This document shows, piece after piece, positions 1,682 through 25,514 of a stretch of DNA of 64,000 nt. This stretch comes from a virus (taxonomy: Duplodnaviria > Caudoviricetes). The translations under genes were made by a program, and so were the position numbers. The stretch covers positions 64,001 through 128,000 of the IMG/VR virus record IMGVR_UViG_3300013426_000019, one strand, 5' to 3'. Within the stretch, counting starts at the first letter, position 1. Every line of letters begins with the position of its first letter. The notes under the pieces are model-generated. The model saw nothing but the letters and a program-made list of their open reading frames with translations, ran no database searches and was not told the origin of the DNA.

Positions 1682-4600
1682 ATGGACAAGGTACTAGGAT
1701 TAGAAGGTGCGCAGATACTATATGATGACAACCGTAAGAGAGTAGAGGATGTTAGGAAGGATCTTCAGAACATTGATAATCTTAAGGTAGACGGCGCCAG
1801 AGTATCAGAAGATGGCAAATACTTATACTTAACATCTCATGATGAAGATGTAGCAGGTCCTTACGGTCCCTTCAGTGGAGGTGGTGGGGGTGGTGGAGGC
1901 TCCGACAATGAAGCTAAACTTACAGTTATAAACCAATCAGGAGACATGCCGACAGCGGTACCTACAGGTGGCAAGTACGTTATCAAGTTATACTGGACCT
2001 CTATAGAGCAGGACATGCCAACGGGGTCAGGTACTATTGAAATTAAGGTCAACAAGGAGACTAAAGTATCGGGCAATATACCTCAAGGAGAGTATCAGAT
2101 TGACTTAATGCAATACCTAATAGTAGGTGACAACAGTATTAAGATTACAATATCAGATATCTATGAGAATGCTAGAACTGTTGCGTTCAGCGTTAGGGTA
2201 GTATCATATAGCTTAGTTGGTTCAGACAGCTTCGACCCTTCGCAGGCTTACAATAGTGCAATACCGTTCTCCTTCACAGCTAGAGGTGAAGGTACCAAGA
2301 CTATGCACTTCTTGATAGATGACAAAGAAGTCTTAACTAAGAACATAACATCAGCCAATAGAGAAGATACAGTTGAGCTGCCTAAACAATCGCATGGTGT
2401 GCACAGATTAGTTGCGTACTTCACAACAATGTTAAGTGGGGAGACTATAACATCCAACTCACTAAGTTACGACCTTATATGTTATGAAGAGGATAATCCA
2501 GCAACAATCATAGCATCATCATTGACAGATATTGAGGTTGACCAATATAGTACAATAAGCATACCCTACTACGTCTTCAATGCTCTACACAGTACAGTAG
2601 ATGTTGAGTATCTTATAAATGGTGAGGTAGTATCAACACTTACCAACGTAAGTAGATCACTGCAGACCTGGGTTAGAAGAGCTGAAGATGCCGGTGCTTA
2701 TACATATACAATAAGATCAGGTAGTGCATCTAAGGACTTCAAGGTATCTATAACTAAGCTCAACGTAGATATCTCAGCTGAGACAAGTGGTCTATCATTA
2801 CACTTAAGCTCTGAAGGTAGATCCAACAATGAGGAGCCTACTAAGAGGAGTACTTGGGAGTATGAGGGTATTAAGGCTCAGTTCAGAGGGTTCAATTGGA
2901 ACTCAGACGGTTGGGTACTAGACAATGAAGGCCACACTGTATTGAGAGCCAAGGACGATGCTAGAGTTGTTATACCATATCACCCATTCGGTACGTCTAG
3001 TGGCGACATTAAGTCAACAGGTAAGACCTTAGAGTTTGAGTTCGCCACAAGCAGTGTCTTCGATTACGATACACCTATTATAAGTTGCTTAAGTGGTGGC
3101 AAGGGGTTCCAGATTACAGCTCAACAAGCGTTGTTTGCCTCTAACGTTAGCTCCTTAAAGACACAGTATAAAGAGAATGAGCATGTTAGAATCTCGTTTG
3201 TTATTAACAATATAAGTAACAACAGACTCATATACTGCTACATTAATGGTATTATATCTGGCCTTATAACATACCCTGTTACTGATATATTCTATCAGAA
3301 CCCTGAAGTAGATATAACAATAGGCTCAGCAGATGCAGTCGTAGATGTCTACAGAATTAGAATATATGACAGAGCTCTAAGCAGGTTCCAGGTTGTAAAT
3401 AACTGGATTGCAGATATGCAGGATGGTGCTAAGTTACTTGAAGAGTATAGGCGCAATACAATATACGACGACAATGATAACTTATCTCTTGATCTAATTA
3501 AGACACACCTACCTACTCTACCTTATATAGTAGTATACACGGATGAGGTAACAGACAAGAAGGGTAACTTGGTAGGGCACTTACCTACCTACAAAGGAGA
3601 GAAGTTACTAGTAAGTGGCTATTATGTAGACCCAGTTAATCCTCAAAACTCCTTCAGTTGGAAGAACGGAGAGATAGACGTACAGGGTACCTCATCACAG
3701 GCATATCCTATTAAGAACTTCAAACTTAAGATCAAACGAGCAGATACTTATGAGGACGAGACAACTCGTAAGCCTACAGACTGCTCCGGGTTCATTATGA
3801 CTCAATTATCTGAAGAAGAAGGTAAGGAACATACAGAGAAGAAGTATCCTCTAAGAGGTTATGATGAGAGTGGCAAAGCCTTATCCATTAAGGAGAACAC
3901 GTTTGTCTTCAAGGCAGACTACGCATCTTCTGAAGGTTGTAACAACGTCGAGTTAGTAAGGTTCTACAACGATGTATGTACACAATATGTATATCCAACA
4001 CCCCCACAGCAGAAGGATAAGAAGATCCGTCAAGGCATAGACGGCTTCCCAATGGTATGGTTTGAGGTTAAGGGTGGCGAAGTTAAGTTTATAGGTAAGT
4101 ACAACTTCAACAACCACAAAGGTACAGAAGATACATATGGCCTAAGCTATGGAGGTGAGACCTTTGAAGAGACAGCAGAGAGTGATTATTATAGATCAAT
4201 AGTAGGTGCACCTGATGAATCTTGGGAAGTTACAGATAATAACAATCTTATAACATTGTGGAGAAGAGTAGCGGGAGATGCTACTAAGACGACTATAACA
4301 GACTCTGCGGGCAGACCTACAACTTATGATGTATATATCTCAGGAGATAACTTTGAGTTAGTTAAGACAAGATCTCTGGAAGCTATATACTTAGGTAGCA
4401 GTAGTAGCATAGATAAGAACGAGTATCCTAAGTACACTACATGGGCAACTGAATGGCAGAAGACTTATACAGACCTAAACAGCTGGATTACAGGCTACGC
4501 CCTGACAAGTATATATGATGCAGGTGAAGGATTAGACGATGAGACTAAAGCTCAGCGAGACCTTATAATACTCACAATGAAGAAGGATATAAGAGACTTG

Positions 4601-9477: not shown

Positions 9478-12400
9478 GTGGCAATACCAGGCGAAGATAT
9501 ATATAAGTTCAATCCAACATCGCGCCAATATCTAGACAGAGAAGGCTTAATAGAATATACAAGTAAAATAAAGAGCAAGATTGCAGAGGATATTACAGCC
9601 GATCTTGGGAAGAAGATAACAGCGGAATCTGAAGCTCGTGCTGCAGGAGATAGTGCTCTACAACAGAGTATAAACAATCTGCCTGCTAAAGCCTACTCTA
9701 AAATAACAGCTGTATCAGGATCTACAACCACAGCCGTAGAAGCTTCGGGCAAGGATAGTGAATTAAAGTTAAAAGCTGGAAGTAATGTAGCCTTAGGCGT
9801 AGATACAACCAATAAAACAATCACAATCAATGCCACTGATACAAAATATGTCGCAGCCACTACTAGTGCTCCTGGCTTAATGTCTAAAGAGGACAAGGTT
9901 AAGTTAGATGGTATTGCTACTAATGCTAATAAGTACACCTTACTTCCTGCAACATCAGATGCACTAGGCGGTGTAATGGTTCTTGCTAACTCTGGAATAG
10001 AATTAGCTCCAGACGGTAAAATCAGCCTTACTAAAGATAAGTTAGTGCAGATGATAGGTGCCTTCGCAGGAGCAACAGCATCTACAGCAGGACAAGTAGG
10101 TCTTGTACCAGCACCTGCCAAAGGAAGTACAAGCTTATACTTAAAGAGTGATGGTACCTGGGGGACACCTACTAACACAGTATATACCCACCCAAATTCA
10201 GGAGTAAAAGAGGGTACATATAGATCAGTAACAGTTAATGCACAAGGACACGTAATAGAAGGTACTAATCCTACAACACTTGATAAGTATGGTATTACTG
10301 ATGCCAAGATAGTAAGTGGTACTATAACATTAGGTACAGCCACAATTACCCCTCTAACAAGTAGCAGTGTTACGGCCACAAACAATACTGCAAGTTGGGG
10401 AAGTGCTGTAGTAGTAGGCAAGGTAGGAAGCACTGACCTCAAGTTCATAATGCCTGCTAAAGTAGCAGCGTCTATTATAGATGGCACGCTTGCCGATGCG
10501 CAGATACCTAAGCTTGCACTAGGTAAAATAAATTCTGGGGCCATAGCTCTAACAGGCGGTGCTATAGGTACTCAAAATCTCAGCGGCAGTAATAGTGTAT
10601 CTATAAATGTATCAGAAGTTAAAGAAGGATACTTAACTTGGGGAGGTAAGAACCTCATGGGCGGCTTCGGTCCTATAGATGCAGCTATGATCCCAACCTT
10701 AGGGGCTAACAGACTAGAAGCTTGTAAGGCTGCTGGTATTACAGTAGAGTATTCAAGAGATGGAGGTTCTACTTGGACTGATTATGGGCTGAGTGATATA
10801 GAAAAGAGAAGGCTCTTAGGTTCTTATAGTTCTTCTATTAAGGTGGGCAAGGCTACTAATAGCGACCAGTATAAGGCAAATTATCAAGTAAGAGTAACTT
10901 TAGATACATCGAAGTGTGGTGTATATACAAATTTAAATAAATTTGCAATATATATATCCACAGGAGGAATGCCAGGGACTTACTGCACCATAGAGGCCGC
11001 ACCTAAGGCAAGTCCAACAGCTTGGGAAGTTAAAGTTAATAAACAAGCAATATCTGGTTGGAGTGGTTGGAATATAATAAATACACCTACAATTACTACT
11101 ACTAATGGTTCCTCTTATTATGGTTGGATAAGGTTTACCTTTGGGGGCACTGGAGTAAATACCACACATCCTGAACAGGGCTTGAGTATCTTCAATATTC
11201 TGGGCTTCGGGGGTGTAGGATGGGCTACGCCATCTACATGTGCAAAATACGGGGTACCTTATAAGTATTACGCTGTAGATGCTTCTAGTGAGCCTACAAC
11301 AGAGTTCTCGGGACCAGTAAAGGTATCCAACCTCTCAGCTACAACTGTTACCACTACAACTGTCATAGGCTCCTTAGGTAGTTCAGATGGCACCATGAAG
11401 ATCTACGCCGAAAAGAATAATGAGCTTAACTTCGGTGGAAATAATGTTGGAAATAATACCATCTTCTTCGGTTTTAGAGCTAAAGACTCCAAAGCAATAC
11501 CTGCTAAGTTCGTTATGGGGGGAACCTCAGGAACAGCAGAAGTAGTAGCTACTAAGTTCACGGGTGCTCTAAATGGCAATGCAACAACGGCGACAGCCTT
11601 AACCTCTAAAGGTATAGGATCTGAAATACAACCTGTATACTTCGATGCAAACGGTAAACCTGTAGCTATAAGTTATACAATAGAAAAGAGCGTACCTTCA
11701 GGTGCGGTGTTTACGGATACCCACTTCACAACAGGATTAGTAACAAGTAACTCTGCAACGGGAACATCTAATGCAGCTGCTACTGATGGCAATGTATACC
11801 TCAACTTAAAGGATAACTCTACAATCCGTAACTCCCATAAGATTATAGGAAGTGGGGCAACCACCGTAACTAGTGATGCTAGTGGCACAATCACTATTGC
11901 ATCAACTAATACAACATACTCCGCAAGTACCGGAATATCCCTTAGTGGTACTACCTTCAGTAACTCAGGTGTTAGAGCTATCAACCCAGGCTCTGCTAAT
12001 GGTACTATATCAGTTAATACTAATGGTACTGTAGCAGATGTAGCAGTAAAGGGCCTAGGCACAGCCGCCTATGAAGCAAAAACAGCCTTCGCTCTTGCAG
12101 ACCACTCACATAGTAATTACGCCTCCTCAGTTAAAACAACAGGAACAGGAAATGCCATTACAACTATCACTCAGAGTGGAAATGAAATAACTGCAACCAA
12201 AGGCTCTACGTTCTTGACATCACATCAAGATATAAGTGGCAAAGCCAATCTCAGCGGGGCCACCTTTACGGGTGCTGTCGCTATTACGAATACTACAGCC
12301 AGCTCCAGCACAACTACAGGTGCTCTTAGAGTATCAGGAGGTATTGGCGCTCAGGGATCTATTTATGGGGCAAGGGTCTACAATGCAGTTTGGAATGACT

Positions 12401-12804
12401 TAGCAGACTGTATCCCTGTAGATGATGATGTAGAATTAGAACCAGGAAGGTGTTATTGCTTCAATGGCACAAACTACCACAAGTCCAATAAATACTTAGC
12501 AGACGGCATAATAGGAATCCACTCTGATACTTACGGCATGCATATGGGAGCCAAGCAAGGCGTTAAACAAATGGATGTTGCAGTAGCTGGGTTTGTTCTT
12601 GCATATGTAGACCAGGAATATCCAGTAGGTACTCCTCTGACATGTGGGCCAGATGGTATGTTGGTTAAAATAGAGAGAGAAGATAAGATTGAGTATCCTG
12701 AAAAAATTATAGCTACATACTGGAAAAAAGAAACAGAGGAATACTGGGGAAGTGAAACTCAAAAAGTCAAAGTTAATGGTAGAAAGTGGGTTAAGATAAA
12801 GTAA
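9478..12804 (+). CDS. Tail fibre with C-terminal intramolecular chaperone (Peptidase_G2-like) domain
   Basis: GLMSKEDKVKLDGI, YTHPNSGV..GTYRSVTVNAQGHV and TTGALRVSGGIG fibre motifs; C-terminal NAVWNDLAD...VNGRKWVKIK domain shared with 39746. Confidence 0.85.
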   Translation: MAIPGEDIYKFNPTSRQYLDREGLIEYTSKIKSKIAEDITADLGKKITAESEARAAGDSALQQSINNLPAKAYSKITAVSGSTTTAVEASGKDSELKLKAGSNVALGVDTTNKTITINATDTKYVAATTSAPGLMSKEDKVKLDGIATNANKYTLLPATSDALGGVMVLANSGIELAPDGKISLTKDKLVQMIGAFAGATASTAGQVGLVPAPAKGSTSLYLKSDGTWGTPTNTVYTHPNSGVKEGTYRSVTVNAQGHVIEGTNPTTLDKYGITDAKIVSGTITLGTATITPLTSSSVTATNNTASWGSAVVVGKVGSTDLKFIMPAKVAASIIDGTLADAQIPKLALGKINSGAIALTGGAIGTQNLSGSNSVSINVSEVKEGYLTWGGKNLMGGFGPIDAAMIPTLGANRLEACKAAGITVEYSRDGGSTWTDYGLSDIEKRRLLGSYSSSIKVGKATNSDQYKANYQVRVTLDTSKCGVYTNLNKFAIYISTGGMPGTYCTIEAAPKASPTAWEVKVNKQAISGWSGWNIINTPTITTTNGSSYYGWIRFTFGGTGVNTTHPEQGLSIFNILGFGGVGWATPSTCAKYGVPYKYYAVDASSEPTTEFSGPVKVSNLSATTVTTTTVIGSLGSSDGTMKIYAEKNNELNFGGNNVGNNTIFFGFRAKDSKAIPAKFVMGGTSGTAEVVATKFTGALNGNATTATALTSKGIGSEIQPVYFDANGKPVAISYTIEKSVPSGAVFTDTHFTTGLVTSNSATGTSNAAATDGNVYLNLKDNSTIRNSHKIIGSGATTVTSDASGTITIASTNTTYSASTGISLSGTTFSNSGVRAINPGSANGTISVNTNGTVADVAVKGLGTAAYEAKTAFALADHSHSNYASSVKTTGTGNAITTITQSGNEITATKGSTFLTSHQDISGKANLSGATFTGAVAITNTTASSSTTTGALRVSGGIGAQGSIYGARVYNAVWNDLADCIPVDDDVELEPGRCYCFNGTNYHKSNKYLADGIIGIHSDTYGMHMGAKQGVKQMDVAVAGFVLAYVDQEYPVGTPLTCGPDGMLVKIEREDKIEYPEKIIATYWKKETEEYWGSETQKVKVNGRKWVKIK

Positions 12805-12826: not shown

Positions 12827-14351
12827 GTGAACTACTCTTCAGCTAAAGACTGAAGAGCTTCTTTTCAAAGCATCACCACTTTGATTTTCTACTTCGTAGG
12901 ATACTCCACAAATCTCTGAGTTACAAAGATTTATTTCCATATCCTCCATAGACATGACTTCTTGCTGTTCCAGCAATAGAGTTGATTTTAAATCATCAAC
13001 TAGGATTCTAATTGCGTTTTCTTTTAAATTTTGAGCCGCATTTTGATCGCGTATGATTTTTGTTCCACATTCCGGACAAATCCAAACTCGATCTTTTAAT
13101 GTTAGCTCTTTATTAACGTAACCACAATGATTACAAGTTTTACTTGAAGGATAGAACCTATCAGATTTAATCACAAGACAATTATTAAACTTAGCTTTTT
13201 GCTCAAGTCTAGTTACAAATGTATACCAACTAGTATCTACATAATTTTTGGCATTATGACTGAACTTCATCATACCTCGAAGGTTAAGATCTTCAATTCC
13301 AATTACATCGTAATTCTGAACTAATCTTAAAGTTTCTTTCTCCCTGTAATCTTTTCTAATATTAGCAATATGATTCTCAAATCGAGCAAGCTTGATTCTC
13401 GCTTTTTCTCTATTTTTTGAATCTTTTTGTTTTCTTGCTAATCTTCGTTGTAGTCTTGTTAATTTTCTATTGTTTTCTTGTTTGGCTTTTTTGAAGTTTG
13501 GAGCTTCCTCATTTAAATCATTTATATATAACGAATTAGGACTGAAGTCTAAGCCGATTGCTTTATCTAACTTAATCGTTGAATAAACATCTTGTTCTTT
13601 TTCAAACAAGATTGAACACCAGTATTCCCCACAGGCATTTTTGGAGATAGTCATGTGTTTTGGAATAGCTTCTTTGAACCAACTTATCCATTTTTTAGAT
13701 TTATCTTCAGCGTGTCTAAATCTGACTTGCTTAAGTTTGGGAATAGTTACCAGCCTATGATCCCAATCTAGACAATTTTTAGGAAGCATGAAAAGTGAAA
13801 AGCTGTCCTTGTGTTGCTTCTTAGATTTGAATTTTGGAAAACCTACTTTCTTGCCTTTTCTTTGTTTGGTTATAGATTTAAAGAAGTTGCTGAATGCTTG
13901 TTCACAGTTTCTTTGACTTTGAATCAAAGGTTCAGCTATAGCATCACTTAAGAACTCATACTTCTCTTCTCTAAGTTGTTTTGGAAGTTTGCCTTTGAAT
14001 TTGTTTCTTTGATCTTTAGGCAAATCTTTGTTTGCATTGTACCACTCAATATGTTCAGCCAATCTTTCATTATAGAGTAATCTACAACAACCAAACGTTT
14101 TATTTAGGAGAATTTTTTGATTTTCGTCAGGATATAGTCTGATTTTTAAAGACCTATGAATTATACTAATTTTATCAGACATTGATCAAACTCCTTACTA
14201 GTTTGGTTTTTGTTTGGGGATATTTTAGAACTGCAATTCTAGAATATCCTGTTTTTATTTTTATACTATAATTAGTGACCAGGGTTTAAAAGGTTGAAAT
14301 CGCTGCATCCCTTAGACTAAAGACCTAAGAGTTTTAGCGATTTGGGTTTTT
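12827..14351 (-). mobile_element. Non-autonomous IS200/IS605-family element (tnpB only, IS1341-like)
   Basis: Subterminal hairpins with TCTTTAG loops at both ends; right end CTCTTCAGTCTTTAGCTGAAGAGTAGTTCAC; left end preceded by TTTAT (candidate TAM); left boundary approximate. Confidence 0.8.
12839..14182 (-). CDS. tnpB: TnpB RNA-guided endonuclease
   Basis: N-terminal KIRLYP..Q..LL.KTFGCCR HTH; RuvC residues IGLDF, IEDL, RDQNAA; CNHCG/CPECG zinc ribbon. Confidence 0.95.
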   Translation of the reverse strand: MSDKISIIHRSLKIRLYPDENQKILLNKTFGCCRLLYNERLAEHIEWYNANKDLPKDQRNKFKGKLPKQLREEKYEFLSDAIAEPLIQSQRNCEQAFSNFFKSITKQRKGKKVGFPKFKSKKQHKDSFSLFMLPKNCLDWDHRLVTIPKLKQVRFRHAEDKSKKWISWFKEAIPKHMTISKNACGEYWCSILFEKEQDVYSTIKLDKAIGLDFSPNSLYINDLNEEAPNFKKAKQENNRKLTRLQRRLARKQKDSKNREKARIKLARFENHIANIRKDYREKETLRLVQNYDVIGIEDLNLRGMMKFSHNAKNYVDTSWYTFVTRLEQKAKFNNCLVIKSDRFYPSSKTCNHCGYVNKELTLKDRVWICPECGTKIIRDQNAAQNLKENAIRILVDDLKSTLLLEQQEVMSMEDMEINLCNSEICGVSYEVENQSGDALKRSSSVFS

Positions 14352-15793: not shown

Positions 15794-16873
15794 ATGTTGA
15801 GAGGATTAGAAAATCTTAAAATAAGATTCAAGTTAAAGCTGCATGCTTCGAGCTTCTTTTTATTTCCTAGAAAAAATAATATTATAACCAATATTATTAA
15901 TCTCCCTAAAAATATAGAAAATTTAAATGCCTCTAGAAATAAAGTTACTATTGAATTAAATTTAAAGTGCAATGCAAATTGTATTTTTTGCAGCAGAGAT
16001 GCTTCGGGGGCTAATAGAGGCTTTTCCTTAAGTTTTGAAGAAGTAAAGAATATTATTGAGACTTCTAAAAGATCAGGCACGCGCATGATAGAATTTACAG
16101 GAGGTGAGGCCCTTTTAGATTCTCTTCTGCCAGATTATTTAGATTACACTCATGAATTGGGAATGCAGACTCAGCTCATTACAAATACCCTTGGATTTAG
16201 CAATCCTATTTTATGCGAGCGACTTTTACCTAAATTAGATTCAATTGAAATGTCTGTACCTTGCGTTAATGAAAATACTTATAATAAATTGACAGGAAAA
16301 AAAGCATATTTTCAATTAATAACTGCTTTAAATAATATTAAAAAATCAGATTGCCAAAAGCAAGTATTTATAATAGCCCTTAAAAGTAATCTTCCTTATT
16401 TACTAGATACCCTGGAATTTTTTAAAGATTTTAGAAATTTAAACTACATATCTATAGTGTATCCTTTATTAGAGGGAAGAATGCATTCTCTTTTTGATGA
16501 ATATCTCTCTTTTTCGGAATTCAGATTTTATATTATACCTTTTTTAAAAAGAGCAAAAGATCTAGGTATTAATATAGTAGGAAGTAAGATACCTCTGTGT
16601 GCTTTTTTTCCTTATGAAAATTTTATTTTTATAAATTCAAAAGAATTTCCTTATAAAAAAAAAGTTATACGTAAATATAAAAATGAACATGTATGCGCTT
16701 ATAGGGAAGAAAATCTACTAGACGATCGAGTAAAATATTTAGAATGTAAAGAATGTATATATAAAGATTCTTGTTTAGGGGTTATAGGCGAGTATAAAAT
16801 TCTTTTTAAAAAAATAGATCCTATTACGCGAGAAAAAAATGAAAATAGATCAAAATATTTTTCAAAATTCTGA
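15794..16873 (+). CDS. Radical SAM protein, HxsC-like C-terminus (start uncertain)
   Basis: CNANCIFC, FTGGEAL, C-terminal CKECIYKDSCLG. Confidence 0.9.
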   Translation: MLRGLENLKIRFKLKLHASSFFLFPRKNNIITNIINLPKNIENLNASRNKVTIELNLKCNANCIFCSRDASGANRGFSLSFEEVKNIIETSKRSGTRMIEFTGGEALLDSLLPDYLDYTHELGMQTQLITNTLGFSNPILCERLLPKLDSIEMSVPCVNENTYNKLTGKKAYFQLITALNNIKKSDCQKQVFIIALKSNLPYLLDTLEFFKDFRNLNYISIVYPLLEGRMHSLFDEYLSFSEFRFYIIPFLKRAKDLGINIVGSKIPLCAFFPYENFIFINSKEFPYKKKVIRKYKNEHVCAYREENLLDDRVKYLECKECIYKDSCLGVIGEYKILFKKIDPITREKNENRSKYFSKF

Positions 16874-17837
16874 TTTTAAATCAATTTACAGCAGGGTGTA
16901 CAATGCTGAGAGTTTAGAAATAGGTACTCTTGAGCTAAATCTCAGGTGCAATCTTTCCTGCATCTTTTGCAGCCGAGAAGCCCATGTTTTTAAAAAAAGT
17001 GAGAATTTAATTCTTCCTGAAATTTTATCTTTTATTGAAAATAAAGACATTATAGTGTTTTGTGGGGGCGAGGCCCTGTTAGATTCTAGACTTCCTTATT
17101 TATTAGAGTATTGTAAAAAAACAGGAAAAAAGACCGCCTTAATATCAAATGGCATTCCTTTTTCAGATCCTAAAATTTGCAAAAGTATTTTAGAAAATTT
17201 GGATTTTCTTACTTTGTCTGTTACCTCCGTAGATTCTAAAATTTATAATTTTATGACGGATTCCAATCAATTTTCTCTTTTTCAAAAAGGTCTTGAAAAT
17301 ATAATGAAGGACCCTCATGAGAAAAATTTACATAAAAGTATAAATATAGTATTATTGAATTCAAATATAAACTATTTGCAAGATATTCCTTTATTTTTCG
17401 AGAAATTAGGAATGCATTCAGTTTTTCTCTACTCTCTTTTATACCCTATATATTTAGGTCGTCTATTAGACTTCCCTCAGGAATTTCCTAATCCAACTTC
17501 GGAAATTTTTCAAAAAAATTTAATGAATTTATGTAATCTTTTAAAGTCAAAAAATAAAATAATTAGATTTGAAAATATGTCGAGCTGTTTTATCCCAGAA
17601 ATAGACGCGGATTTTGTGGATTCCGAAGAAAATTACGGCAAACACTCTTTTTATTTAAAAAAAATTAATAATAAATTGATATCCTACACTAGAGATAGTA
17701 TTGTTGGAACTTATAAAAAGTCTTTTCGGTGTGAGTCCTGTTTGAAAAAAAATTATTGCAGAGGTTTACCGGAAGTAGCAAAAATATTATTTGAAAATAA
17801 AATTACCCCCTTCAAGAGGGGCAATAAGGAAAAATAA
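16839..17837 (+). CDS. Radical SAM protein, paralog of 15794
   Basis: ELNLRCNLSCIFCSR, FCGGEALLDS, CESCLKKNYCRG. Confidence 0.9.
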   Translation: MKIDQNIFQNSDFKSIYSRVYNAESLEIGTLELNLRCNLSCIFCSREAHVFKKSENLILPEILSFIENKDIIVFCGGEALLDSRLPYLLEYCKKTGKKTALISNGIPFSDPKICKSILENLDFLTLSVTSVDSKIYNFMTDSNQFSLFQKGLENIMKDPHEKNLHKSINIVLLNSNINYLQDIPLFFEKLGMHSVFLYSLLYPIYLGRLLDFPQEFPNPTSEIFQKNLMNLCNLLKSKNKIIRFENMSSCFIPEIDADFVDSEENYGKHSFYLKKINNKLISYTRDSIVGTYKKSFRCESCLKKNYCRGLPEVAKILFENKITPFKRGNKEK

Positions 17838-19109
17838 ATGTATAGTTTAAAACTAGGTTCTGCTTGCAACAATGACTGCATTCATTGTAATGTAAATTCA
17901 GAAGATAATATTGAAAATTTAATTTTTGAGGAAATTCGGGAGATAGTTGATGATATTCCTCAAGGGGAAATAATTTGTCTAGAAGGAGGGGAACCAACTC
18001 TAAGAGAAGACTTTTTTGATATAGTAGAGTATTGTGGTTTAAAAGGGCATAAAATAATACTCCAAACCAACGGCACGGGCCTCACGGAAGAAATCACCCA
18101 AAAAATAAAGCCTTTTGTAAAAAAAGTATATATATCTATATATTCTTCTAATTCTTATATTCATAATTTAATTACTAGAACTCATAATGAAAAAAGTACA
18201 TTTGAAAAAACAATACAAGCCTTAAAAAATCTCTATAGGTATTCTATTCCATTCAATACGCAAACAGTTATTTCTAAAATTAATATGGCTTCTTTATATG
18301 ATACTTTCTCCTTTATTCAAAAAGAATGCCCTGGTATTTTTATGTGTCTCACTTATCCTCATCCTATTAAAAATATTTGGGAAAATAAAATTTTAACATG
18401 TGTTTCTTTTAAGGAATTGAAGCCCTTTATTCAGCCTTGCTTCAGAGATTTCGGTCCTTTTTTAATAGTAGAGTCAATTCCTCCCTGTTATATATTTCCT
18501 TTTTATCAAAATATAGGATATAATTTAGACGCTATTATTAAAAATAAACTTTTAAAAAACGAGAATTACTATAAATATGGGGATGTAGAAAAATATCCAG
18601 TTAAAAACTTTAATTTTAAAAGAAAGGGCCCTAAATGTGTGGACTGCTTTTATTTTGAGGAATGTCTAGGTGTTTGGAAAGAATATGTAGATTTGTATAG
18701 ATTACATTTCGATCTTTTTCCTATAGATATAAAAACCCCCTGGAATATTTCTTTGGATAATTTTCTACAACTTGAGATAGATGATTTTTCTTATGAGGAT
18801 ATAAAAAAGATCCTAGAAAATAATAAAAATTATAAGCCTGTTTTAATTAAGATTAAAGATTTTTCAAAAAATCTTTCAATTAAATTGAATAGGGCAAAAG
18901 CAATATCTCAGATAGTAGACAATTATTCTTTCCCAATATCTTTTTTAGATATCCCTAAATGTTATTTAGAGCCCTTTACTGGAGTAATCAACACTTATCA
19001 AAAAAATTTTGAAAAAAATTCAGACAAATGTAAAAATTGCAATTTTAGAAAGGAGTGCTTTGGCTTTGATTTCAAATTAATTGATTCCAAGATGAAGGAT
19101 TGGAAATGA
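17838..19109 (+). CDS. Radical SAM protein, HxsC-like, with duplicated C-terminal Cys motif
   Basis: CNNDCIHC, GGEPTLR, LQTNG; CVDCFYFEECLG and a second CKNCNFRKECFG. Confidence 0.9.
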   Translation: MYSLKLGSACNNDCIHCNVNSEDNIENLIFEEIREIVDDIPQGEIICLEGGEPTLREDFFDIVEYCGLKGHKIILQTNGTGLTEEITQKIKPFVKKVYISIYSSNSYIHNLITRTHNEKSTFEKTIQALKNLYRYSIPFNTQTVISKINMASLYDTFSFIQKECPGIFMCLTYPHPIKNIWENKILTCVSFKELKPFIQPCFRDFGPFLIVESIPPCYIFPFYQNIGYNLDAIIKNKLLKNENYYKYGDVEKYPVKNFNFKRKGPKCVDCFYFEECLGVWKEYVDLYRLHFDLFPIDIKTPWNISLDNFLQLEIDDFSYEDIKKILENNKNYKPVLIKIKDFSKNLSIKLNRAKAISQIVDNYSFPISFLDIPKCYLEPFTGVINTYQKNFEKNSDKCKNCNFRKECFGFDFKLIDSKMKDWK

Positions 19110-20210: not shown

Positions 20211-21077
20211 ATGTTTGAATTTTTAACAGACACAGGATCTGAAATAGATAATTACCTTAGAGAATCCTTAAATATAGGCCTTCTCAGGACGGGTGTTACT
20301 TTAAAAACAAGAGAGATCTTTTCAGATGCGAATTGGGATAATGTAAATGCTTTTGAATTTTTCAAAGATTTAGAAGAGGGCGTAGTAAGCATATATCAGC
20401 CCGCAATGAATTACTGGAAAGATATTGTAGAAGAGATATTTAAGAAGGGTAAAGACGTATTATTTTTAGGTATGTCCTCCAGATTTACAGGGGGAATCAA
20501 AAATCTTAACATTATTAAAATGCTTCTGAGTCCTATTTATCCTGACAGAAAATTAGTAATTTTGGACTCAGGGCTTGTTGCAGGAGGCGAGAAATGTCTA
20601 GTATTAGCTGTAGCAGAGTATTTAAAGGATAAAAGAGAAGAAGATGTAGAAAAAATAGCCTCTGAAATAAAAATCAAGTTTTTAGGCAGAGGAATAACTT
20701 ATTGGATTTTAGATTCTTTAAAATTCTATATGAAGGCTAATAGAGGTTTAGATTCTTTTAAAGATTTGAATATTCCTAAAGGTTATCCTATAATAAAATC
20801 TGAGAATGGCAGCTTTTTTTTAAAAGGATTATTTAATTCAAAAGAAGATGCTTTGGAAGCACTAATAGGGGATATAAAACTCTCATCTATAGAGACTTTG
20901 GAGTTTACTTACTCTCCGGACTGGGATTTAAAAAAGATAAGAGAAGTAGTAAATCAGCTGGAATCTAATTTAAATATTATTATTAATCATAATATTACTT
21001 ATCAGAGCCCGTCAGTTACTGCTGTAACAGGGCCTTATTCTTATAGTATAGGAGTTTTAAAAAATGTTACTTTTTAA
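20211..21077 (+). CDS. DegV/FakB-family fatty-acid-binding protein
   Basis: LTDTGSEI, YQP, MSSRFTG, ILDSGLVAGG, LDSLKFY...NR, SPSVTAVTGP match the DegV motif order; 288 aa. Confidence 0.8.
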   Translation: MFEFLTDTGSEIDNYLRESLNIGLLRTGVTLKTREIFSDANWDNVNAFEFFKDLEEGVVSIYQPAMNYWKDIVEEIFKKGKDVLFLGMSSRFTGGIKNLNIIKMLLSPIYPDRKLVILDSGLVAGGEKCLVLAVAEYLKDKREEDVEKIASEIKIKFLGRGITYWILDSLKFYMKANRGLDSFKDLNIPKGYPIIKSENGSFFLKGLFNSKEDALEALIGDIKLSSIETLEFTYSPDWDLKKIREVVNQLESNLNIIINHNITYQSPSVTAVTGPYSYSIGVLKNVTF

Positions 21078-21241
21078 TGAAGCTTTTAAATCTTGTTAAA
21101 AAACCTCTAATCCTTAGAAGATCAAAGGGTATTCTTTTTTTAATACTTCCTTATACTAATTATATATAATAAGTCAACATAATATTTCTTATGTAAATAA
21201 TTAATTTTGGTAATTGACATCTAATTTAGGAAGGATATAAT

Positions 21242-21517
21242 ATGAAGGATACAAATATTGAATTGTCTGCAGAAGACAGACAAGATATAAATCTGTCTTT
21301 AGAGGTTATTAATACCGCAGAATTTGAATTGAGGAATATATCGGGATTTGAGAATCTCAAAGAAGAAGAAGTACGAAATATTTACCAAGGGGCTTGTGAT
21401 GCCCTGATAGAAGGGAGAGTAATGCTACATCTTCTTCGCCAAGAATTTGTAAAAAAATATAATATTCCATATGATTTTATTTCCATCGATGGTCATATTT
21501 ATTTACAAGAGGATTAA
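21242..21517 (+). CDS. CXXX-repeat peptide modification system protein-like (TIGR04116-like)
   Basis: 91 aa, ELSAEDRQDI ... KKYN....IDGHIYL; next to CXXX substrates and maturase. Confidence 0.55.
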   Translation: MKDTNIELSAEDRQDINLSLEVINTAEFELRNISGFENLKEEEVRNIYQGACDALIEGRVMLHLLRQEFVKKYNIPYDFISIDGHIYLQED

Positions 21518-21520
21518 ATA

Positions 21521-22537
21521 ATGGCGGTTATCCCTGACAATCAAAATTTTTTATCTACAGACAAGAATACCCCCCTAAAGGAAGCACAATTAAAATCTTT
21601 ACTAGCACAAGCTATTACAGCGAGAGCTAAAAGAGGTTGGACTACTTCTGAAGACAGTATCAGTCTCTATACTCATAGGGTGTCCCTTTCTCAGATGAAT
21701 GATATGTCAAACGTTATTATTGACAAGTCATCCGATCAGCATATTCCTTATAGTAGTTCACCTTATCCTAAAGCAATTTCCTCAGGGTCGAAAGTTTTTG
21801 CTAAAGCTACAGATTATAATGAATTGCAACAAGCAGTAAATGATATATCTAATAATATTATGTGCGAAGGTTGTAGTAATACTTGTTATGCAAGCTGTGC
21901 AAATTCTTGTGCTTCAAGTTGCACTAGTACTTGTGTTAATTTATGTACAGATAATTGTGGCTCTTCCTGCACAGACACTTGTAACAGCATAAGTTGTAAT
22001 AATGCAAATTGTTCTGCGGCTAATTGTTCTTCGGTAGCTTGTACAAAAACCAACTGCTCCTCAGGAAGTTGTTCTTTCGGTGCTTGTAATGCCTCGGGAT
22101 GTGATAAAGGCTCTTGCGAGAATGGTTCATGTCATCAAAGTTCTTGTGAGAGATCAGGATGCAACTATGATAGTTGTGATTCTACTTCCTGTGATTCTGG
22201 TTCTTGTGATACAGGCTCTTGTAGTCAGAAGACATGCAGCGATTCCGGGTGTAGTAAAGATACATGTGGCAAGGCCACCTGTTCTAGTGGGGCCTGCAAC
22301 GGTGGTGAATGCAATTCAGGAGCTTGCGCGAGAAGTGGCTGCGACGCTTCTAATTGTTCCACGGATAGTTGTGATGACGCAGACTGCAATGCGGACCCTT
22401 GCAGCAATAATACATGCAATAGCACGGGCTGCAGCCACGATAGCTGCTCTAATAACACTTGTGACTCTGATGATTGTAGCACTGCCACTTGTTACAGCGG
22501 GGATTGCAATGGTGGATCTATGAATAAATCACATTAA
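21521..22537 (+). CDS. Cys-repeat protein: 114-aa Cys-free N-domain plus 46 periodically spaced Cys
   Basis: One Cxx, then 9 Cxxx units, then 36 Cxxxx units, counted from the translation. Confidence 0.9.
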   Translation: MAVIPDNQNFLSTDKNTPLKEAQLKSLLAQAITARAKRGWTTSEDSISLYTHRVSLSQMNDMSNVIIDKSSDQHIPYSSSPYPKAISSGSKVFAKATDYNELQQAVNDISNNIMCEGCSNTCYASCANSCASSCTSTCVNLCTDNCGSSCTDTCNSISCNNANCSAANCSSVACTKTNCSSGSCSFGACNASGCDKGSCENGSCHQSSCERSGCNYDSCDSTSCDSGSCDTGSCSQKTCSDSGCSKDTCGKATCSSGACNGGECNSGACARSGCDASNCSTDSCDDADCNADPCSNNTCNSTGCSHDSCSNNTCDSDDCSTATCYSGDCNGGSMNKSH

Positions 22538-22551
22538 AGGAGATTTTTAAA

Positions 22552-22746
22552 ATGGGTATATGCTCAGGATGCTGGGGAAATTGCAATAAGGGCTGTTCTG
22601 GTGATTGTAATAATAAATGTATTTCCACTTGCACCGGATCTTGTGTAGGATCATGTTCAGGATTATGTGAAAATACATGTACAGATACCTGTATTAATAC
22701 TTCTAAAAATGATACTCGTATTACTTCTTTTGTCGTAAAATTTTAA
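22552..22746 (+). CDS. CXXX-repeat radical SAM target peptide (TIGR04114-like)
   Basis: 64 aa with 12 Cys in Cxx then Cxxx register; AAGGAG RBS; directly upstream of the maturase. Confidence 0.9.
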   Translation: MGICSGCWGNCNKGCSGDCNNKCISTCTGSCVGSCSGLCENTCTDTCINTSKNDTRITSFVVKF

Positions 22747-22755
22747 GGGGTTTAA

Positions 22756-23940
22756 ATGATTAAAAAATGGAATGCCTTTAGTGGTTATAATATAACAATC
22801 AATACTACTGAAGATTGTAATTTAAGATGCAAATATTGTTACGAGATATATAAAAAACCTGGAAATATAGATCTTAATACAGCTAAGAAATTTATAGATT
22901 TTATTTTCGATGATCCCGACCCTACCAATATAAAAGATGAAAGGCCAGATGCTTATGATGGATTGATTTTAGACTTAATTGGGGGTGACGCCCTAATGAA
23001 TGCTGATATTTTAGATGATATTTTTAAATATGTAAATACTCGTTGGGCTTTAAGTGATAAATTCAAAAAACATGGTTGGAGATCCTCAATATCTTCAAAT
23101 GGTACGCTATTCTACAAAAAGGAAGTTCGAGATTTTTGTGAAAAATGGCAAGACCACTTAAGTTTAGGGGTGTCAATTGATGGTTGTCCCACTATTCATA
23201 ATAAGAATAGAATATTTTGTGATGGTAGGGGGAGTATGTCTACTATTCTAGAGTGGTGGCCCTGGTATAGAAAAATATTCCCCGTAAATTCTTTAGAGAC
23301 AAAGGCAACTTGCAATAAAGACTCTATTCCTTATTTATATGAATCTTTGAAATGGATGCATGAGGAATTAGGGTTAAGATGGATTAATCAGAATTTTATT
23401 GGGGAAAACATGGATCTCATCGAAAAGGATCTTCAAGAATTAGACAAACAACTTGAAAAGTGCTGTGATTATTGTTTAAAACATAAAGAAGATCTTTATT
23501 GGTCAATTCTAGGAGAGAGATTCCAATTTCCACGCAATGAAAAATATGATTCTACCTTTGCTACTGCAAGTTGTGGAGCAGGACAGATGCCCGCTTGTTC
23601 TATTAAAGGTGATTTATATCCTTGTTTTAGATGGCTGCCTCAATCTCAGGGGGATAAATTTGCAAAATATAAAATTGGAAATATCCATGGTAAATTAAAT
23701 AAAAACCTCTTTAAGGAGGTCAGAACTTTAGCAAGGGCTTCTAATTGCACAAAGGAAAATAAATGCTTAGAATGTGAGTATTCTTCAGCTTGTGTTTGGT
23801 GTGTAGCTGGCTCTTTCGCAGAGTATGATGATTTTATTAGACAAACTCATATATGTGAGGTAACAAAACTCCAATGTAAATGGGCAAAAATTTATGTAGA
23901 GAAATTAAAGGAGAGTTTAAATGAAAATACAAAAGTTTGA
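22756..23940 (+). CDS. Radical SAM/SPASM peptide maturase, CXXX-repeat target family (TIGR04115-like)
   Basis: TEDCNLRCKYCY, LIGGDAL, VSIDG..IHNKNR.FCDGRGS; SPASM CGAG..GDLYPCFR..CLEC..SACVWC...HIC. Confidence 0.9.
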   Translation: MIKKWNAFSGYNITINTTEDCNLRCKYCYEIYKKPGNIDLNTAKKFIDFIFDDPDPTNIKDERPDAYDGLILDLIGGDALMNADILDDIFKYVNTRWALSDKFKKHGWRSSISSNGTLFYKKEVRDFCEKWQDHLSLGVSIDGCPTIHNKNRIFCDGRGSMSTILEWWPWYRKIFPVNSLETKATCNKDSIPYLYESLKWMHEELGLRWINQNFIGENMDLIEKDLQELDKQLEKCCDYCLKHKEDLYWSILGERFQFPRNEKYDSTFATASCGAGQMPACSIKGDLYPCFRWLPQSQGDKFAKYKIGNIHGKLNKNLFKEVRTLARASNCTKENKCLECEYSSACVWCVAGSFAEYDDFIRQTHICEVTKLQCKWAKIYVEKLKESLNENTKV

Positions 23941-24325
23941 GGGAATGATAGGGCCTTGCGGAATATTTGATGATAGTCTAGGTATGACTAATGATGAAGT
24001 TCCTGTTTCCTTAGAAAATAATGTTTATAGTGACGCTATGAACTTAGATGGATGTAATTATACCGCCCTATTATTAGATTCTTTAGATTTAAATCTCCTT
24101 AGACCTAATTTAAGATCCTACATAAGGAATGCTATTTTAAATAAGGCGCAGACTTCTTTTGTATATGGTGAACTCTTACGCCCTTTCAATAAAGCCTGTA
24201 AAGAACTGGGGATTGAATGTAACCCTCACATTACCCCTGATGGAATATTTATTAATATGGAAGATTATTTTACTTGGCAGAAATTATATTTCCATCATCC
24301 AACAAAAAGTGAAAAGAGAGCTTAA
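23921..24325 (+). CDS. Hypothetical protein in the maturase operon
   Basis: Overlaps the maturase stop; GGAG RBS. Confidence 0.7.
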   Translation: MKIQKFEGMIGPCGIFDDSLGMTNDEVPVSLENNVYSDAMNLDGCNYTALLLDSLDLNLLRPNLRSYIRNAILNKAQTSFVYGELLRPFNKACKELGIECNPHITPDGIFINMEDYFTWQKLYFHHPTKSEKRA

Positions 24326-24333
24326 ATTAAAAT

Positions 24334-24621
24334 ATGGAAGAAATAAGTGAAAAAAAAGAAATTACTAAAGAGTATCTAATATTTTTGTATTCAAAATTAA
24401 AAAAAGAATTGAATGAAGCTTTTCAAAGTTTCCAGGAAAATTTAAAAGCTGAAGATATAAGAGAATTAAATACTAAAGTAGCAGACATACAATCCAGGGC
24501 TCGATTATTAATTATGTTTATAATTTCTAATTGTGAATTAGATAATTTATCTACCACTATAGCTAATGTTAAAAAATGGCAAGAGGAAATTACTTGTGAG
24601 CAGCTATTTTCTCAGAATTAA
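24334..24621 (+). CDS. Hypothetical helical protein
   Basis: 95 aa ORF, last gene with island-like composition. Confidence 0.6.
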   Translation: MEEISEKKEITKEYLIFLYSKLKKELNEAFQSFQENLKAEDIRELNTKVADIQSRARLLIMFIISNCELDNLSTTIANVKKWQEEITCEQLFSQN

Positions 24622-24682
24622 TTTTTAATGTTTTAGAGGAGCTTTGGAGCTCCTCTTTATATTATATATGGAGGCCGTTGGT

Positions 24683-25489
24683 ATGCATTACTTAACATCC
24701 ATTCTCGACAAGCTCAAAGAGCATGAAGTACAACTCAATAACATAAACGTCTTTCCTATAGCAGACAAGGATACCGGAACCAACCTCTTCAAGACCTTAA
24801 ATGTAGAGGTAGATGCCACTAACTTCAGAGACTTCCTATTCAAGTTATCTGACAAGGTTCTTTACTCAGCCAGGGGCTCCAGTGGCAACATACTAGCACT
24901 ATACCTCCTTGGCCTCAAGGAGAACTACAATGATAACATAGTAGAGACCTGTAGGGGCGCAGCCCAGTTTACATGGAACACGATGTATGAGCCTCAAGAG
25001 GGTACGATACTCACAGCCATGAAGGCCTATCCAACAATCTTTGAAGGCCCTAAACAATACATAGGAGACTTCTACAACAACGTTTTAGATTGCCTTATGA
25101 GAGGACCAGACTTACTACCTATTTTAAAGCAGCACAACACAATAGACTCAGGAACCTTAGGGTTTACATACATCTTACAAGGACTATATGAGGCCATAGT
25201 AGGCGAATCCTTACCAACACCAGAACTCACTTTATCCCCTGTAGATACCTCAATCACACCGGAAGAGAAGACTTACTGTGTAGAGTTATTACTAGAGGGC
25301 AACCACAAGGAGGAGCTAGGATTCCTTAAAGATTATGGTGATGAGTTGATAATCCTCACCTTAAACAACGAAGCCACCAAGCTCCACATACACACAGACA
25401 ATTATCAAGAGGTTATACGTAGAGTAGAAGGGGTGGCACAAATTAAGGCCACAAAGGTAGACAACATGAAGGAACAAGGCAAGGCTTGA
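24683..25489 (+). CDS. DAK2-domain fatty acid kinase subunit A-like protein (short form lacking the C-terminal domain)
   Basis: NVFPIADKDTGTNL, ARGSSGNIL, PQEGTILT, DSG, YCVELLL, KLHIHT, KVDNMKEQ are FakA/YloV motifs; start moved to the ATG after GGAGG. Confidence 0.88.
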   Translation: MHYLTSILDKLKEHEVQLNNINVFPIADKDTGTNLFKTLNVEVDATNFRDFLFKLSDKVLYSARGSSGNILALYLLGLKENYNDNIVETCRGAAQFTWNTMYEPQEGTILTAMKAYPTIFEGPKQYIGDFYNNVLDCLMRGPDLLPILKQHNTIDSGTLGFTYILQGLYEAIVGESLPTPELTLSPVDTSITPEEKTYCVELLLEGNHKEELGFLKDYGDELIILTLNNEATKLHIHTDNYQEVIRRVEGVAQIKATKVDNMKEQGKA

Positions 25490-25514
25490 CAATTTTAAGG
25501 TGTTGTAATATAAT
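25486..25514 (+). promoter_or_regulatory. Consensus sigma70 promoter
   Basis: TTGACA-17nt-TATAAT. Confidence 0.85.

Follow-up and report, generated by a model that had tools for sequence, protein, structure and literature searches.

A 338-residue cysteine-repeat protein of jumbo gut phages as a probable substrate of a radical SAM/SPASM maturase

Thioether formation by radical SAM enzymes is familiar from short peptides guided by a leader; in PapB, QhpD and the CteB/SCIFF maturases, the closest characterised relatives of the enzyme studied here, it runs through abstraction of hydrogen from a carbon, to which the Cys sulfur is then joined. Closest to the locus described here is the CXXX-repeat system, in which targets with a Cys at every fourth position of tandem repeats (TIGR04114/04117/04118, equal to PF27846) lie beside a SPASM radical SAM enzyme (TIGR04115) and a second maturase (TIGR04119); our literature search found no experimental study of this family and nothing on CXXX-repeat maturases, TIGR04115 function or Cys-repeat proteins of phages. 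CX4 periodicity is found in a second catalogued pair, CefA/CefB (NF038108/NF038107), whose target CefA is modelled as a peptide of ~65 positions, while in freyrasin formation the six CXXXD motifs of PapA, which follow a leader, are cross-linked by PapB. The acceptor for PapB has to be an acidic residue on the C-terminal side of the Cys. Ring size makes no difference to this enzyme, which tolerates acceptors from i+1 to i+7 (PMC12373016). That a repeat protein, not a small peptide, can be matured by dedicated radical SAM enzymes has a published precedent in the HXS system (HxsA with HxsB/HxsC/HxsD), where the repeat is His-Xaa-Ser and periplasmic HxsA serves in bacterial defence (PMC13128918). 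Finally, SPN3US-like jumbo phages (SPN3US, Machina, phiEaH2, CR5 and others) have CX3/CX2 repeat proteins beside a maturase that is distantly related to the one studied here (24-26% identity, 31 matching phage records), and close homologues of the Machina enzyme occur in 62 records.

The window, i.e. the whole stretch of 64,000 nucleotides of phage DNA that we analysed, holds a new variant of a kind of cassette which is already catalogued in NCBIfam and Pfam. We put at roughly 60% the probability that its Cys protein is a protein-sized, uncleaved substrate of a thioether-type radical SAM/SPASM maturase, both being encoded in an operon conserved within one clade of as yet uncultured jumbo gut phages (Table 1). 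Relative to the CXXX-repeat system, the additions in this operon are the N-domain (114 aa), the partner (91 aa) and the CX4 block (175 residues); relative to CefA, the CX4 block comes joined to a preceding CX3 block and a probably folded domain; and relative to PapA, the presumed substrate is an entire protein of 338 aa.

Table 1. Features of the cysteine-repeat operon and its flanks (window coordinates)
Feature	Coordinates	Strand	Remarks
ACTAATT motif	21155-21161	+	87 nt before the operon's first gene; putative promoter element, judged from sequence
Sigma-70-type consensus, TTGACA-16-TATAAT	21214-21241	+	perfect; abuts the partner's ATG; consensus match only
Six-gene operon	21242-24621	+	91-aa partner, Cys protein, 64-aa CX3 peptide, SPASM radical SAM enzyme, 134-aa and 95-aa proteins
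91-aa partner	21242-21517	+	directly upstream of the Cys protein in all cases
Cys protein	21521-22537	+	stop-free translation, 338 aa, 46 Cys
N-domain, residues 1-114 of the Cys protein	21521-21862	+	Cys-free, conserved
CX2 and nine CX3 units (Cys 115-154)	21863-21982	+	spacing count; TIGR04114 match
35 CX4 intervals (Cys 154-329), 9-residue tail, stop codon	21980-22537	+	spacing count; weak CefA match
64-aa leaderless Cys peptide	22552-22746	+	first Cys at residue 4; spacings 3x1, 4x10; C-terminal follower CINTSKN...
Radical SAM/SPASM maturase, 394 aa	22756-23940	+	family profiles; two genes downstream of the Cys protein
134-aa protein	23921-24325	+	overlaps the end of the maturase gene; function unknown
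95-aa protein	24334-24621	+	last operon gene
Terminator-like hairpin	24635-24656	+	9 bp stem with 5 GC pairs, then a T-rich run; consensus scan only

Behind its Cys-free first 114 residues, the Cys protein keeps an unbroken series of Cys (residues 115-329) that are spaced by 3 (once), by 4 (nine times) and by 5 (35 times). Counting the last Cys with its tail turns the 35 CX4 intervals into 36 units, so that translation and spacing count confirm the Cys-free domain, one Cxx, nine Cxxx and 36 Cxxxx units that the sequence-only reading had described. Its further claim that the DNA of the units has diverged is borne out by Tandem Repeats Finder, which returned merely two arrays, each of ~2 copies of 15 nt, and the repeat part is composed of S (48), C (46), N (22), D (20), G (19), T (19) and A (17) among others, Lys and Arg together making up no more than eight residues. 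As also claimed, spacing rather than sequence is conserved: the CX3-then-CX4 plan is kept in three related uncultured phages, with 10 CX3 then 38 CX4 in the ~36% identical protein of L009 and with ten spacings of 4, then spacings of 5, in L007 and L010, and the Cys columns of the CX3 block are invariant in six of six aligned homologues, while the non-Cys residues of the CX4 units are no closer between the window and L009 (12% identity unit by unit) than between shuffled units (15 +/- 2.6%). Because contigs from two further samples (one study) recover the entire 3380-bp operon intact, with 17 substitutions and no indels, the ORF is not an assembly artefact; the strain variant of the Cys protein differs by five nonsynonymous changes, none at a Cys, and by no indels. 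All sequencing runs that carry the operon come from a single study, and no RNA run is listed among them. As a further form that the CX4 part may take, the sequence-only reading had named a beta-solenoid or metal ladder; AlphaFold2 modelling of the full protein from a six-sequence alignment gave a mean pLDDT of 36 and left the Cys part without a fold.

As for the enzyme, its best family is TIGR04115, the CXXX-repeat maturases (217.6 bits, cut-off 350), with further matches to PapB (146.2 bits, cut-off 340), to QhpD-type enzymes (76) and to SCIFF maturases (67). As it reaches the curated cut-off of no named family, homology does not settle which reaction it carries out. Its nearest solved structure is CteB (5WGG, E 3.5e-19), and since the alignment begins at CteB residue 101, the window enzyme seems to be devoid of CteB's N-terminal domain (~100 residues). 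On the substrate side, the CX3 block scanned alone reaches 25.4 bits on TIGR04114, above the cut-off of 20; that this match is not reported when the whole 338-aa protein is run against NCBIfam is probably due to composition filtering. The CX4 blocks of the window and of L009 score 16.7 and 27.2 bits on CefA, both under the cut-off of 30. An adjacent enzyme that best matches TIGR04115, a CX3 block that passes TIGR04114 and the shared CX3-then-CX4 plan make it very probable that the Cys protein is a radical SAM substrate, as had been suggested from the sequence, and that selection acts on its Cys spacing and not on its sequence. Nevertheless, the operon departs from a canonical cellular-type CX3 locus (L014), whose enzyme scores 630.2 bits on TIGR04115 and which includes a 321-aa protein with 235 bits on TIGR04119. 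In the window operon, neither TIGR04119 nor TIGR04116 finds a match among the 134-aa and 95-aa proteins or, at E<=10, in the partner and 10 of its homologues.

If the chemistry is of the thioether type, the maturase would act on a residue near each Cys, remove a hydrogen from one of its carbons and join the Cys sulfur there, which may convert the S/D/N/T/G-rich tail into a ladder of small thioether rings that resist reduction and proteases. In the anoxic and reducing gut, such a ladder could do what disulfides cannot. Cys-to-acid links of the PapB type would be insufficient for all Cys, because Asp/Glu are present in 20 of the 46 units and within +1 to +7 of 27 of the 46 Cys; at position +4, CX4 units have mostly S, T or G.

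We expect the product to remain a protein, with the virion or the infected cell as possible sites of action, since neither a protease nor an exporter nor a signal peptide was found in the operon; family scans of the operon proteins also gave no match to a transporter or an immunity gene. Were the Cys protein a classical RiPP precursor instead, the N-domain would be a long leader to be cleaved off and the Cys core would be released at lysis, with an antimicrobial or signalling role. The enzyme family is indeed otherwise known from RiPP pathways and the adjoining 64-aa peptide is RiPP-sized, yet this peptide is entirely leaderless, the 114-aa N-domain is long and conserved, the enzyme comes without the N-terminus of CteB, the operon has no match to the protease, transporter or immunity gene of such pathways and HxsA offers the precedent of a matured protein. 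At 215 residues, the core would moreover far exceed any known RiPP core. For these reasons we hold a classical RiPP to be very unlikely. The 64-aa peptide itself matches TIGR04117/04114 weakly and has counterparts in L009 (66 aa) and L005 (99 aa) with the common follower C[IA]N[ST]S.

The cassette was found again in uncultured phage contigs. Partner, Cys protein and maturase keep their order in L003, L005 and L009, where the enzymes are 52-63% identical to that of the window; the contigs of L006 and L007 end after the Cys-protein gene. Downstream, the 134-aa protein, for which profile scans gave no family match, is 30% identical to a 136-aa protein in the same position of L009 (E 4e-22), and small ORFs take the place of the 95-aa protein in L009 (74 aa), L005 (66 aa) and L003, a relatedness by position only. 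The partner has 11 homologues at 37-56% identity. It occupies the same position in L003, L004, L005, L006, L007 and L009 (51-52% identity in L003 and L005, 40% in L009), and its gene, set 3 nt apart from the Cys-protein gene in the window, overlaps it in L003, L005 and L009. Such a translationally coupled protein may act as a helper or chaperone. Its AlphaFold2 model is confident (pLDDT 92.8; a strand, two long helices and a hairpin), but it belongs to no known fold or family: fold searches retrieved generic helical hairpins only (Foldseek best E 0.13, VIA-align best Z 7.3) and an Atlas search unnamed viral clusters. No PqqD-like match was found for the model, a result that still leaves room for an RRE; the partner was also considered as a TIGR04116-like protein and gave no match. 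Complex prediction for partner and N-domain (score 0.30, mark 0.32) speaks neither for nor against binding.

With respect to the register change from CX3 to CX4, the sequence-only reading had proposed that the two registers are read by different radical SAM enzymes, which in the window would leave the CX3 block to the adjacent maturase and the CX4 block to one or more of three enzymes at 15794-19109. Four radical SAM genes do lie on one strand within 8 kb, and NCBIfam separates the maturase families for CX3 (TIGR04115) and CX4 (CefB). However, no enzyme of the window is CefB-like: the adjacent one scores 47.7 bits on NF038107 (cut-off 600), and CefB is outside the top 25 families of the upstream three. 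These are HxsC/AhbD-like, and their arrangement resembles a section of the separate His-Xaa-Ser island that the phage carries, being paralogous to the end of that island. In addition, the operon has one radical SAM gene and is bounded on its own, from a promoter-like region to a terminator-like hairpin, and L009 holds both registers with a single radical SAM gene within +/-10 kb. Hence, a division of labour between enzymes appears quite unlikely and the proposal is not supported. Instead, we infer that one maturase probably handles both blocks of the Cys protein and also the 64-aa CX3 peptide, which is separate and leaderless. This draws on the single gene of L009, on a sister clade in which an orthologous enzyme goes with irregular, mixed Cys spacing (3/4/5), on the boundaries of the operon and on the i+1 to i+7 tolerance of PapB. 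As for these boundaries, the sigma-70-type site sits too near the partner's ATG for a normal leader to fit between them.

A spacing-tolerant enzyme does not explain why the CX4 periodicity is strict in one clade, which hints at an extra structural or metal-binding constraint. Taken further, the Cys could form a metal- or Fe-S-binding ladder, a metallothionein-like store or scaffold, with the radical SAM enzyme in a minor or different role. In keeping with this, the protein offers 46 thiols at fixed spacing, strictly periodic in one clade, and the phage's 11 radical SAM matches all need Fe-S clusters. The canonical CX3 target of L014, too, has a twin-arginine signal and adjoins TatA/TatC, and the twin-arginine route is typical for proteins exported folded or with cofactors. 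The Cys protein of the window differs from this target in having no such signal. Against metal binding speak a His content of three residues, the irregular Cys spacing of the sister clade and the dedicated SPASM maturase that is linked to the Cys protein in every complete locus seen, and so to our minds a metal ladder is rather unlikely.

Turning to the N-domain, seven homologues align at 30-34% identity and keep A34, R35, R38-G39-W40, Q73, Y77, D108-I109 and N111 invariant, consistent with an uncleaved and probably folded recognition or anchoring domain. A word-based homologue search found none, an exhaustive phmmer search gave five matches, two of them real (P0004, P0007), a longer profile search with residues 1-114 gave two and was crowded by chance candidates, and pattern scans of IMG/VR drew a blank for the N-domain as well as for the partner. 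Some of the blank homologue searches reflect that the exact sequences of P0001, P0022 and P0019 are absent from the 15-billion-protein collection; cultured phages yielded neither a near-identical nor an N-domain match, and the clade was found to have no member in culture. A scaffold shared with the phage's His-Xaa-Ser protein was considered and dropped (BLASTP E 0.22; no paralogue in the genome for the N-domain profile at E<=1).

The sequence-only reading had suggested a cross-linked virion fibre. In such a fibre or appendage, the N-domain would dock on the particle and the Cys ladder, once cross-linked, would stand out from it as a thin rod. Some neighbours argue for it, as the more distant phage cassettes are located in tail modules: the three Cys-repeat proteins of Machina (gp175-177) come directly after the virion structural protein gp178 and precede two radical SAM genes, an endolysin and a tail assembly chaperone, and the same three ORFs of SPN3US (NC_027402; at 1630-2022, 2033-2437 and 2453-2659 of L015) come after gp167, a non-head protein detected in virions, and after gp168-170, candidates for baseplate and tail fibre (PMC5694885). 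In the window, a fibre-like gene and two giant ORFs precede the operon by ~8.4 kb, and the structures that the ESM Atlas places near the N-domain count viral fn3, Ig and Peptidase_S74 proteins among them, albeit from a poor model (pLDDT 0.46). On the other hand, scans of PHROG, Pfam and NCBIfam, with their fibre families, gave no match to the N-domain or its seven homologues, and the same scans lend no support to the segment SSGSKV..ATDYNELQQAVND, which had been likened to fibre attachment segments. Alignment to the Machina proteins is confined to the Cys repeats and does not extend to the N-terminal regions; a PHROG scan of the cassette neighbours in L009, L003 and L007 gave no structural annotation; and in the window the operon is set apart from the large ORFs by an IS transposase and the separate enzyme island, with replication genes following it. 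That the homologous genes are absent from the SPN3US virion list carries no information: two of the three ORFs have no annotation, the third was called in a different frame, and the annotation-derived protein set against which the mass spectra were read lacks their products. The ACTAATT motif, said to be shared with the tail genes, is a genuine upstream motif, with 27 of its 37 occurrences in the genome lying upstream of an ORF at no more than 150 nt; among these ORFs are the fibre-like gene at 171, a 1108-aa gene at 9478 and, at 21242, the first gene of the operon. The interval between motif and start codon, however, varies from 12 to 135 nt, and this claim stands in part. On balance, we see a virion fibre as possible but not as the probable outcome.

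A more specific and more doubtful version sees the protein attached to the virion with its 215-residue tail made into a continuous ladder of ~40 thioether rings by one radical SAM enzyme, the CX3 and CX4 parts being mechanically or structurally different segments of an element that would be redox-proof in jumbo phages of anaerobes. If true, this would be the first enzymatically stapled structural protein of a virus and the largest known product of RiPP-type chemistry. Alternatively, a non-structural effector in the manner of HxsA may be envisaged that stays in the cell or is directed to its envelope, for instance in superinfection exclusion or counter-defence. A radical-SAM-matured HXS repeat protein can block phage DNA entry (PMC13128918), and the same phage has an HxsA-like protein with six radical SAM genes. 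Nonetheless, the Cys protein is without sequence similarity to HxsA, no membrane segment is visible in it and its N-domain shows no hydrophobic, signal-like stretch, which makes an effector the least likely of the options considered.

Irrespective of its destination, the preferred reading of the Cys protein as a protein-sized maturase substrate has implications of its own. In several divergent jumbo phages, this enzyme lineage is paired with a protein of 338-350 residues in which spacing is the sole conserved feature over 215 residues, and the strictly conserved register change lends itself as a natural test of the way in which spacing is read by these enzymes. If the Cys are cross-linked, RiPP-type chemistry would extend to whole viral proteins and might be a route of protein stabilisation for phages of anoxic habitats where disulfides fail. 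The idea is directly testable, since related cassettes reside in the cultured and genetically tractable phages SPN3US and Erwinia phage Machina. The SPN3US-like cassettes, which adjoin baseplate/fibre genes, differ from that of the window in that they have two radical SAM genes and lack the CX4 block as well as any homologue of the partner; their proteins are short (68-134 aa), start with an unrelated N-terminus of ~50 aa and align to the window protein in the repeats only. In SPN3US and Machina, the substrate ORFs are unannotated or misframed.

Translation of the operon's second gene (table) and a scripted count of its Cys spacings confirm the description, in the sequence-only reading, of a 46-Cys protein that changes register. 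The reading frame is uninterrupted and codes for 338 aa; residues 1-114 (the N-domain) hold no Cys, and the 46 Cys, all between residues 115 and 329, follow one another unbroken at spacings 3x1, 4x9 and 5x35, i.e. Cys at every fourth (CX3) and then at every fifth residue (CX4), in a repeat part where S, C, N, D, G, T and A are commonest. Its DNA, in which Tandem Repeats Finder detects two arrays only (each ~2 copies of 15 nt), is no recent tandem array. Nor is the stretch an assembly artefact, as the intact operon is spanned end to end by contigs of two other samples from one study with 17 substitutions and no indels; seven of these fall inside the Cys-protein ORF, where five alter non-Cys residues and the other two are silent, in a Cys and a Thr codon. 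Scanned alone, the CX3 block passes TIGR04114 (25.4 bits, cut-off 20), and the CX4 block weakly resembles CefA, a 'Cys-every-fifth' precursor (cut-off 30), with 16.7 bits in the window and 27.2 bits in L009, a homologous cassette of the same plan. Each register thus corresponds to a radical-SAM target type that is catalogued but uncharacterised; judged by sequence, the protein would be a fusion of the two in a single polypeptide behind a folded domain.

Features of the Cys-repeat operon and its surroundings (window coordinates)
Feature	Position	Strand	Remarks
Tail-fibre-like gene	171-1670		
Giant ORF	1682-8788		2368 aa; follows tail-fibre-like gene; matches only unknown-function PHROGs (phrog_14959, 419 bits)
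Giant ORF	9478-12804		1108 aa
Transposase gene	12839-14182	-	phrog_506, 316 bits
DegV-family protein	20211-21077		flanks operon
Spacer upstream of operon			164 nt, AT-rich; ACTAATT at 21155
Sigma-70 consensus	21214-21241	+	perfect 12/12; abuts partner start codon
Six-gene operon	21242-24621		all on one strand
Operon gene 1			91-aa partner
Operon gene 2	21521-22537	+	338-aa Cys protein
Operon gene 3			64-aa peptide; first Cys at residue 4, spacings 3x1, 4x10; non-Cys C-terminal 'follower'
Operon gene 4			394-aa radical SAM/SPASM enzyme
Operon gene 5			134-aa protein
Operon gene 6			95-aa protein
Terminator-like hairpin	24635-24656		after operon
DAK2/YloV-N-like protein	24644-25489		flanks operon
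Second sigma-70 consensus	25486-25514	+	perfect 12/12; both within 4.3 kb

With the N-domain as query, an exhaustive phmmer search returned two true relatives, and a profile of the partner retrieved eleven proteins whose contigs supplied gene context. All loci that are not truncated keep the order partner, N-domain-plus-Cys protein, maturase, with identities to the window of 51-52% (L003, L005) and 40% (L009) for the partner and 52-63% for the maturase. L009 (a 109-kb contig) mirrors all six genes one for one, including a 66-aa peptide and a 136-aa protein, and L005 codes for a corresponding 99-aa leaderless Cys peptide that shares the follower motif. In the alignment of six homologues the first eleven Cys columns do not vary; beyond them, two clades diverge: clade A runs 4x9 then 5x35 (window), 4x10 then 5x38 (L009) or 4x10 then 5s only (L007 and L010, partial), and clade B (L003, L005, L006, P0025) mixes runs of 4 and 3 with an occasional 5. 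In IMG/VR, three closer relatives of the maturase accompany Cys proteins of 246-540 aa with no long CX4 run, one of which (L016) matches the N-domain profile. When the CX4 units of the window are compared with those of L009, identity at non-Cys residues is 12%, against 15 +/- 2.6% for shuffled units, so the claim that Cys spacing rather than sequence is conserved holds, and spacing and composition are all that is kept in these units.

Against NCBIfam the 394-aa enzyme scores 217.6 bits with TIGR04115 ('radical SAM peptide maturase, CXXX-repeat target family'; cut-off 350), 146 with PapB (340), 76 with the QhpD-type (453), 74 with CcpM (500), 67 with the SCIFF maturase (425) and 47.7 with CefB (600), and its closest solved structure is CteB (5WGG, E 3.5e-19). 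This places it in the thioether-forming SPASM neighbourhood, outside all curated equivalogs, and since the alignment begins at CteB residue 101, the phage enzyme lacks the N-terminal domain of CteB. That the two registers are read by different radical SAM enzymes, the second by extra genes at 15794-19109, seems to our minds very unlikely, because these three genes are HxsC/AhbD-like and, with the 229-aa and zinc-ribbon ORFs behind them, share the layout of the end of a separate island in the same phage, because L009 carries both registers with one radical-SAM gene within +/-10 kb, and because the clade B orthologues of the window's enzyme have to cope with irregular spacing. PapB, moreover, tolerates acceptors from i+1 to i+7 (PMC12373016), which counts against any need for two enzymes. 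Clade A nevertheless keeps CX4 over 35-38 units without a slip, a regularity which a spacing-tolerant enzyme does not require and which the product itself probably demands, through regular structure, packing or metal binding.

That separate island lies outside the window (L011:3506-13865, equal to G000:C1:33506-43865). It opens with a His-Xaa-Ser repeat protein of 246 aa, weakly matching HxsA4/HxsA, after which come an Fe-S aldo/keto reductase-like protein and six radical-SAM genes. Given that a bacterial HXS system has been shown to act as an antiphage defence (PMC13128918), a phage-borne HXS-like island is odd.

The N-domain has no match in Pfam, NCBIfam or PHROG, and no paralogue was found in the phage's own genome. 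The partner model (pLDDT 92.8) shows one strand, two long helices and a hairpin, with generic structural neighbours only, unnamed viral clusters among them. A classical RiPP precursor whose leader is cleaved off is argued against by several features: the N-domain is 114 aa long, conserved at specific positions (A34, R35, R38-G39-W40, Q73, Y77, D108-I109, N111) and weakly predicted to be helical, the operon's proteins include no protease, transporter or immunity match, the companion 64-aa peptide has no leader, and the Cys-protein sequence shows no signal peptide. Radical-SAM maturation of proteins has a precedent in the QhpC subunit matured by QhpD. Another is HxsA (PMC13128918).

In a canonical CXXX locus from a faecal record (MT837480.1, 'UNVERIFIED Bacteriophage sp.'), the order is target, TIGR04115 (630 bits), second maturase TIGR04119 (235 bits), with TatA and TatC next in line. 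The locus seems bacterial, not phage-derived, and the twin-arginine signal on its target suggests that the Tat route exports canonical CXXX targets. Among the window operon's proteins there is no match to TIGR04119 or TIGR04116. The finding is real and goes beyond chance; our locus is best filed as a variant of this catalogued, experimentally unstudied CXXX-repeat radical-SAM system. Unlike the canonical form it is phage-borne and protein-sized, brings an N-domain and a partner of its own, switches register from CX3 to CX4 in a strictly conserved way and lacks the canonical second maturase. What it adds is the register switch, an N-domain/partner subfamily and a setting in a phage whose whole record holds 11 radical-SAM (PF04055) matches. 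The cross-linking chemistry is inferred, and so is the place of the Cys protein, whether in the cell or in the virion.

As to the latter, association with the virion is possible yet rather doubtful. Distant phage cassettes do sit within tail modules: in Erwinia phage Machina, a virion structural protein is followed by three Cys-repeat proteins, two radical-SAM genes, an endolysin and a tail assembly chaperone, and a like arrangement in the SPN3US group adjoins gp167, a non-head protein detected in virions, and the baseplate/fibre candidates gp168-170. The Machina proteins, however, align by their repeats only, with N-termini unrelated to our N-domain, which matches no fibre family in Pfam, NCBIfam or PHROG, and its proposed likeness to phage fibre attachment segments finds no support there. 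Furthermore, genes neighbouring the cassettes in L009, L003 and L007 are without annotation, and in the window an IS transposase and the HxsC-like island separate the large fibre-like ORFs from the operon, which replication genes follow. Three Cys-repeat ORFs of SPN3US (NC_027402; L015:1630-2022, 2033-2437 and 2453-2659; 130, 134 and 68 aa) lie beside gp167. Their absence from the SPN3US virion protein list is uninformative, as two of them lack annotation and the remaining one is covered by an out-of-frame annotation (the single CDS there, L015:2106-2441, overlaps the second ORF), so that the published proteomics could not have detected them.

The IMG/VR record (158,768 bp, estimated 74% complete), of which the window covers positions 64001-128000, is that of a jumbo phage, because the exact partner sequence recurs on a contig of 234,860 bp; sample names and run records indicate metagenomes of gut or faeces. 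If used, the sigma-70 consensus abutting the partner start would yield a leaderless or internal transcript. ACTAATT is not over-represented as such within the window, but of its 37 occurrences in the genome, 27 are in sense orientation no more than 150 nt ahead of an ORF. Some 26 ORFs of the record have it upstream (window examples 155, 9343, 21155, 35816, 38442), among them the fibre-like gene at 171, the 1108-aa gene and the operon's first gene, often with C-rich bases before and A-rich bases after it. A phage-specific promoter or regulatory element common to these three is plausible. The proposed link of operon and tail genes thus stands as far as the shared motif goes, whereas 'late, structural' expression does not follow from the motif alone, as its distance to the start codon varies (12-135 nt).

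The flanking DegV-family and DAK2/YloV-N-like proteins are each like one half of a fatty-acid-kinase-type pair. On the divergent L005 contig a DegV gene (L005:3826-4641) lies ~5.4 kb upstream of the cassette, and a YcaO gene and a radical-SAM/glycosyltransferase fusion are also present. Around ACTAATT, the sequences at window 14165 and G000 59605 (G000:C1 ~59300-59605) are near-identical, a hint that the phage carries one insertion element in two copies.
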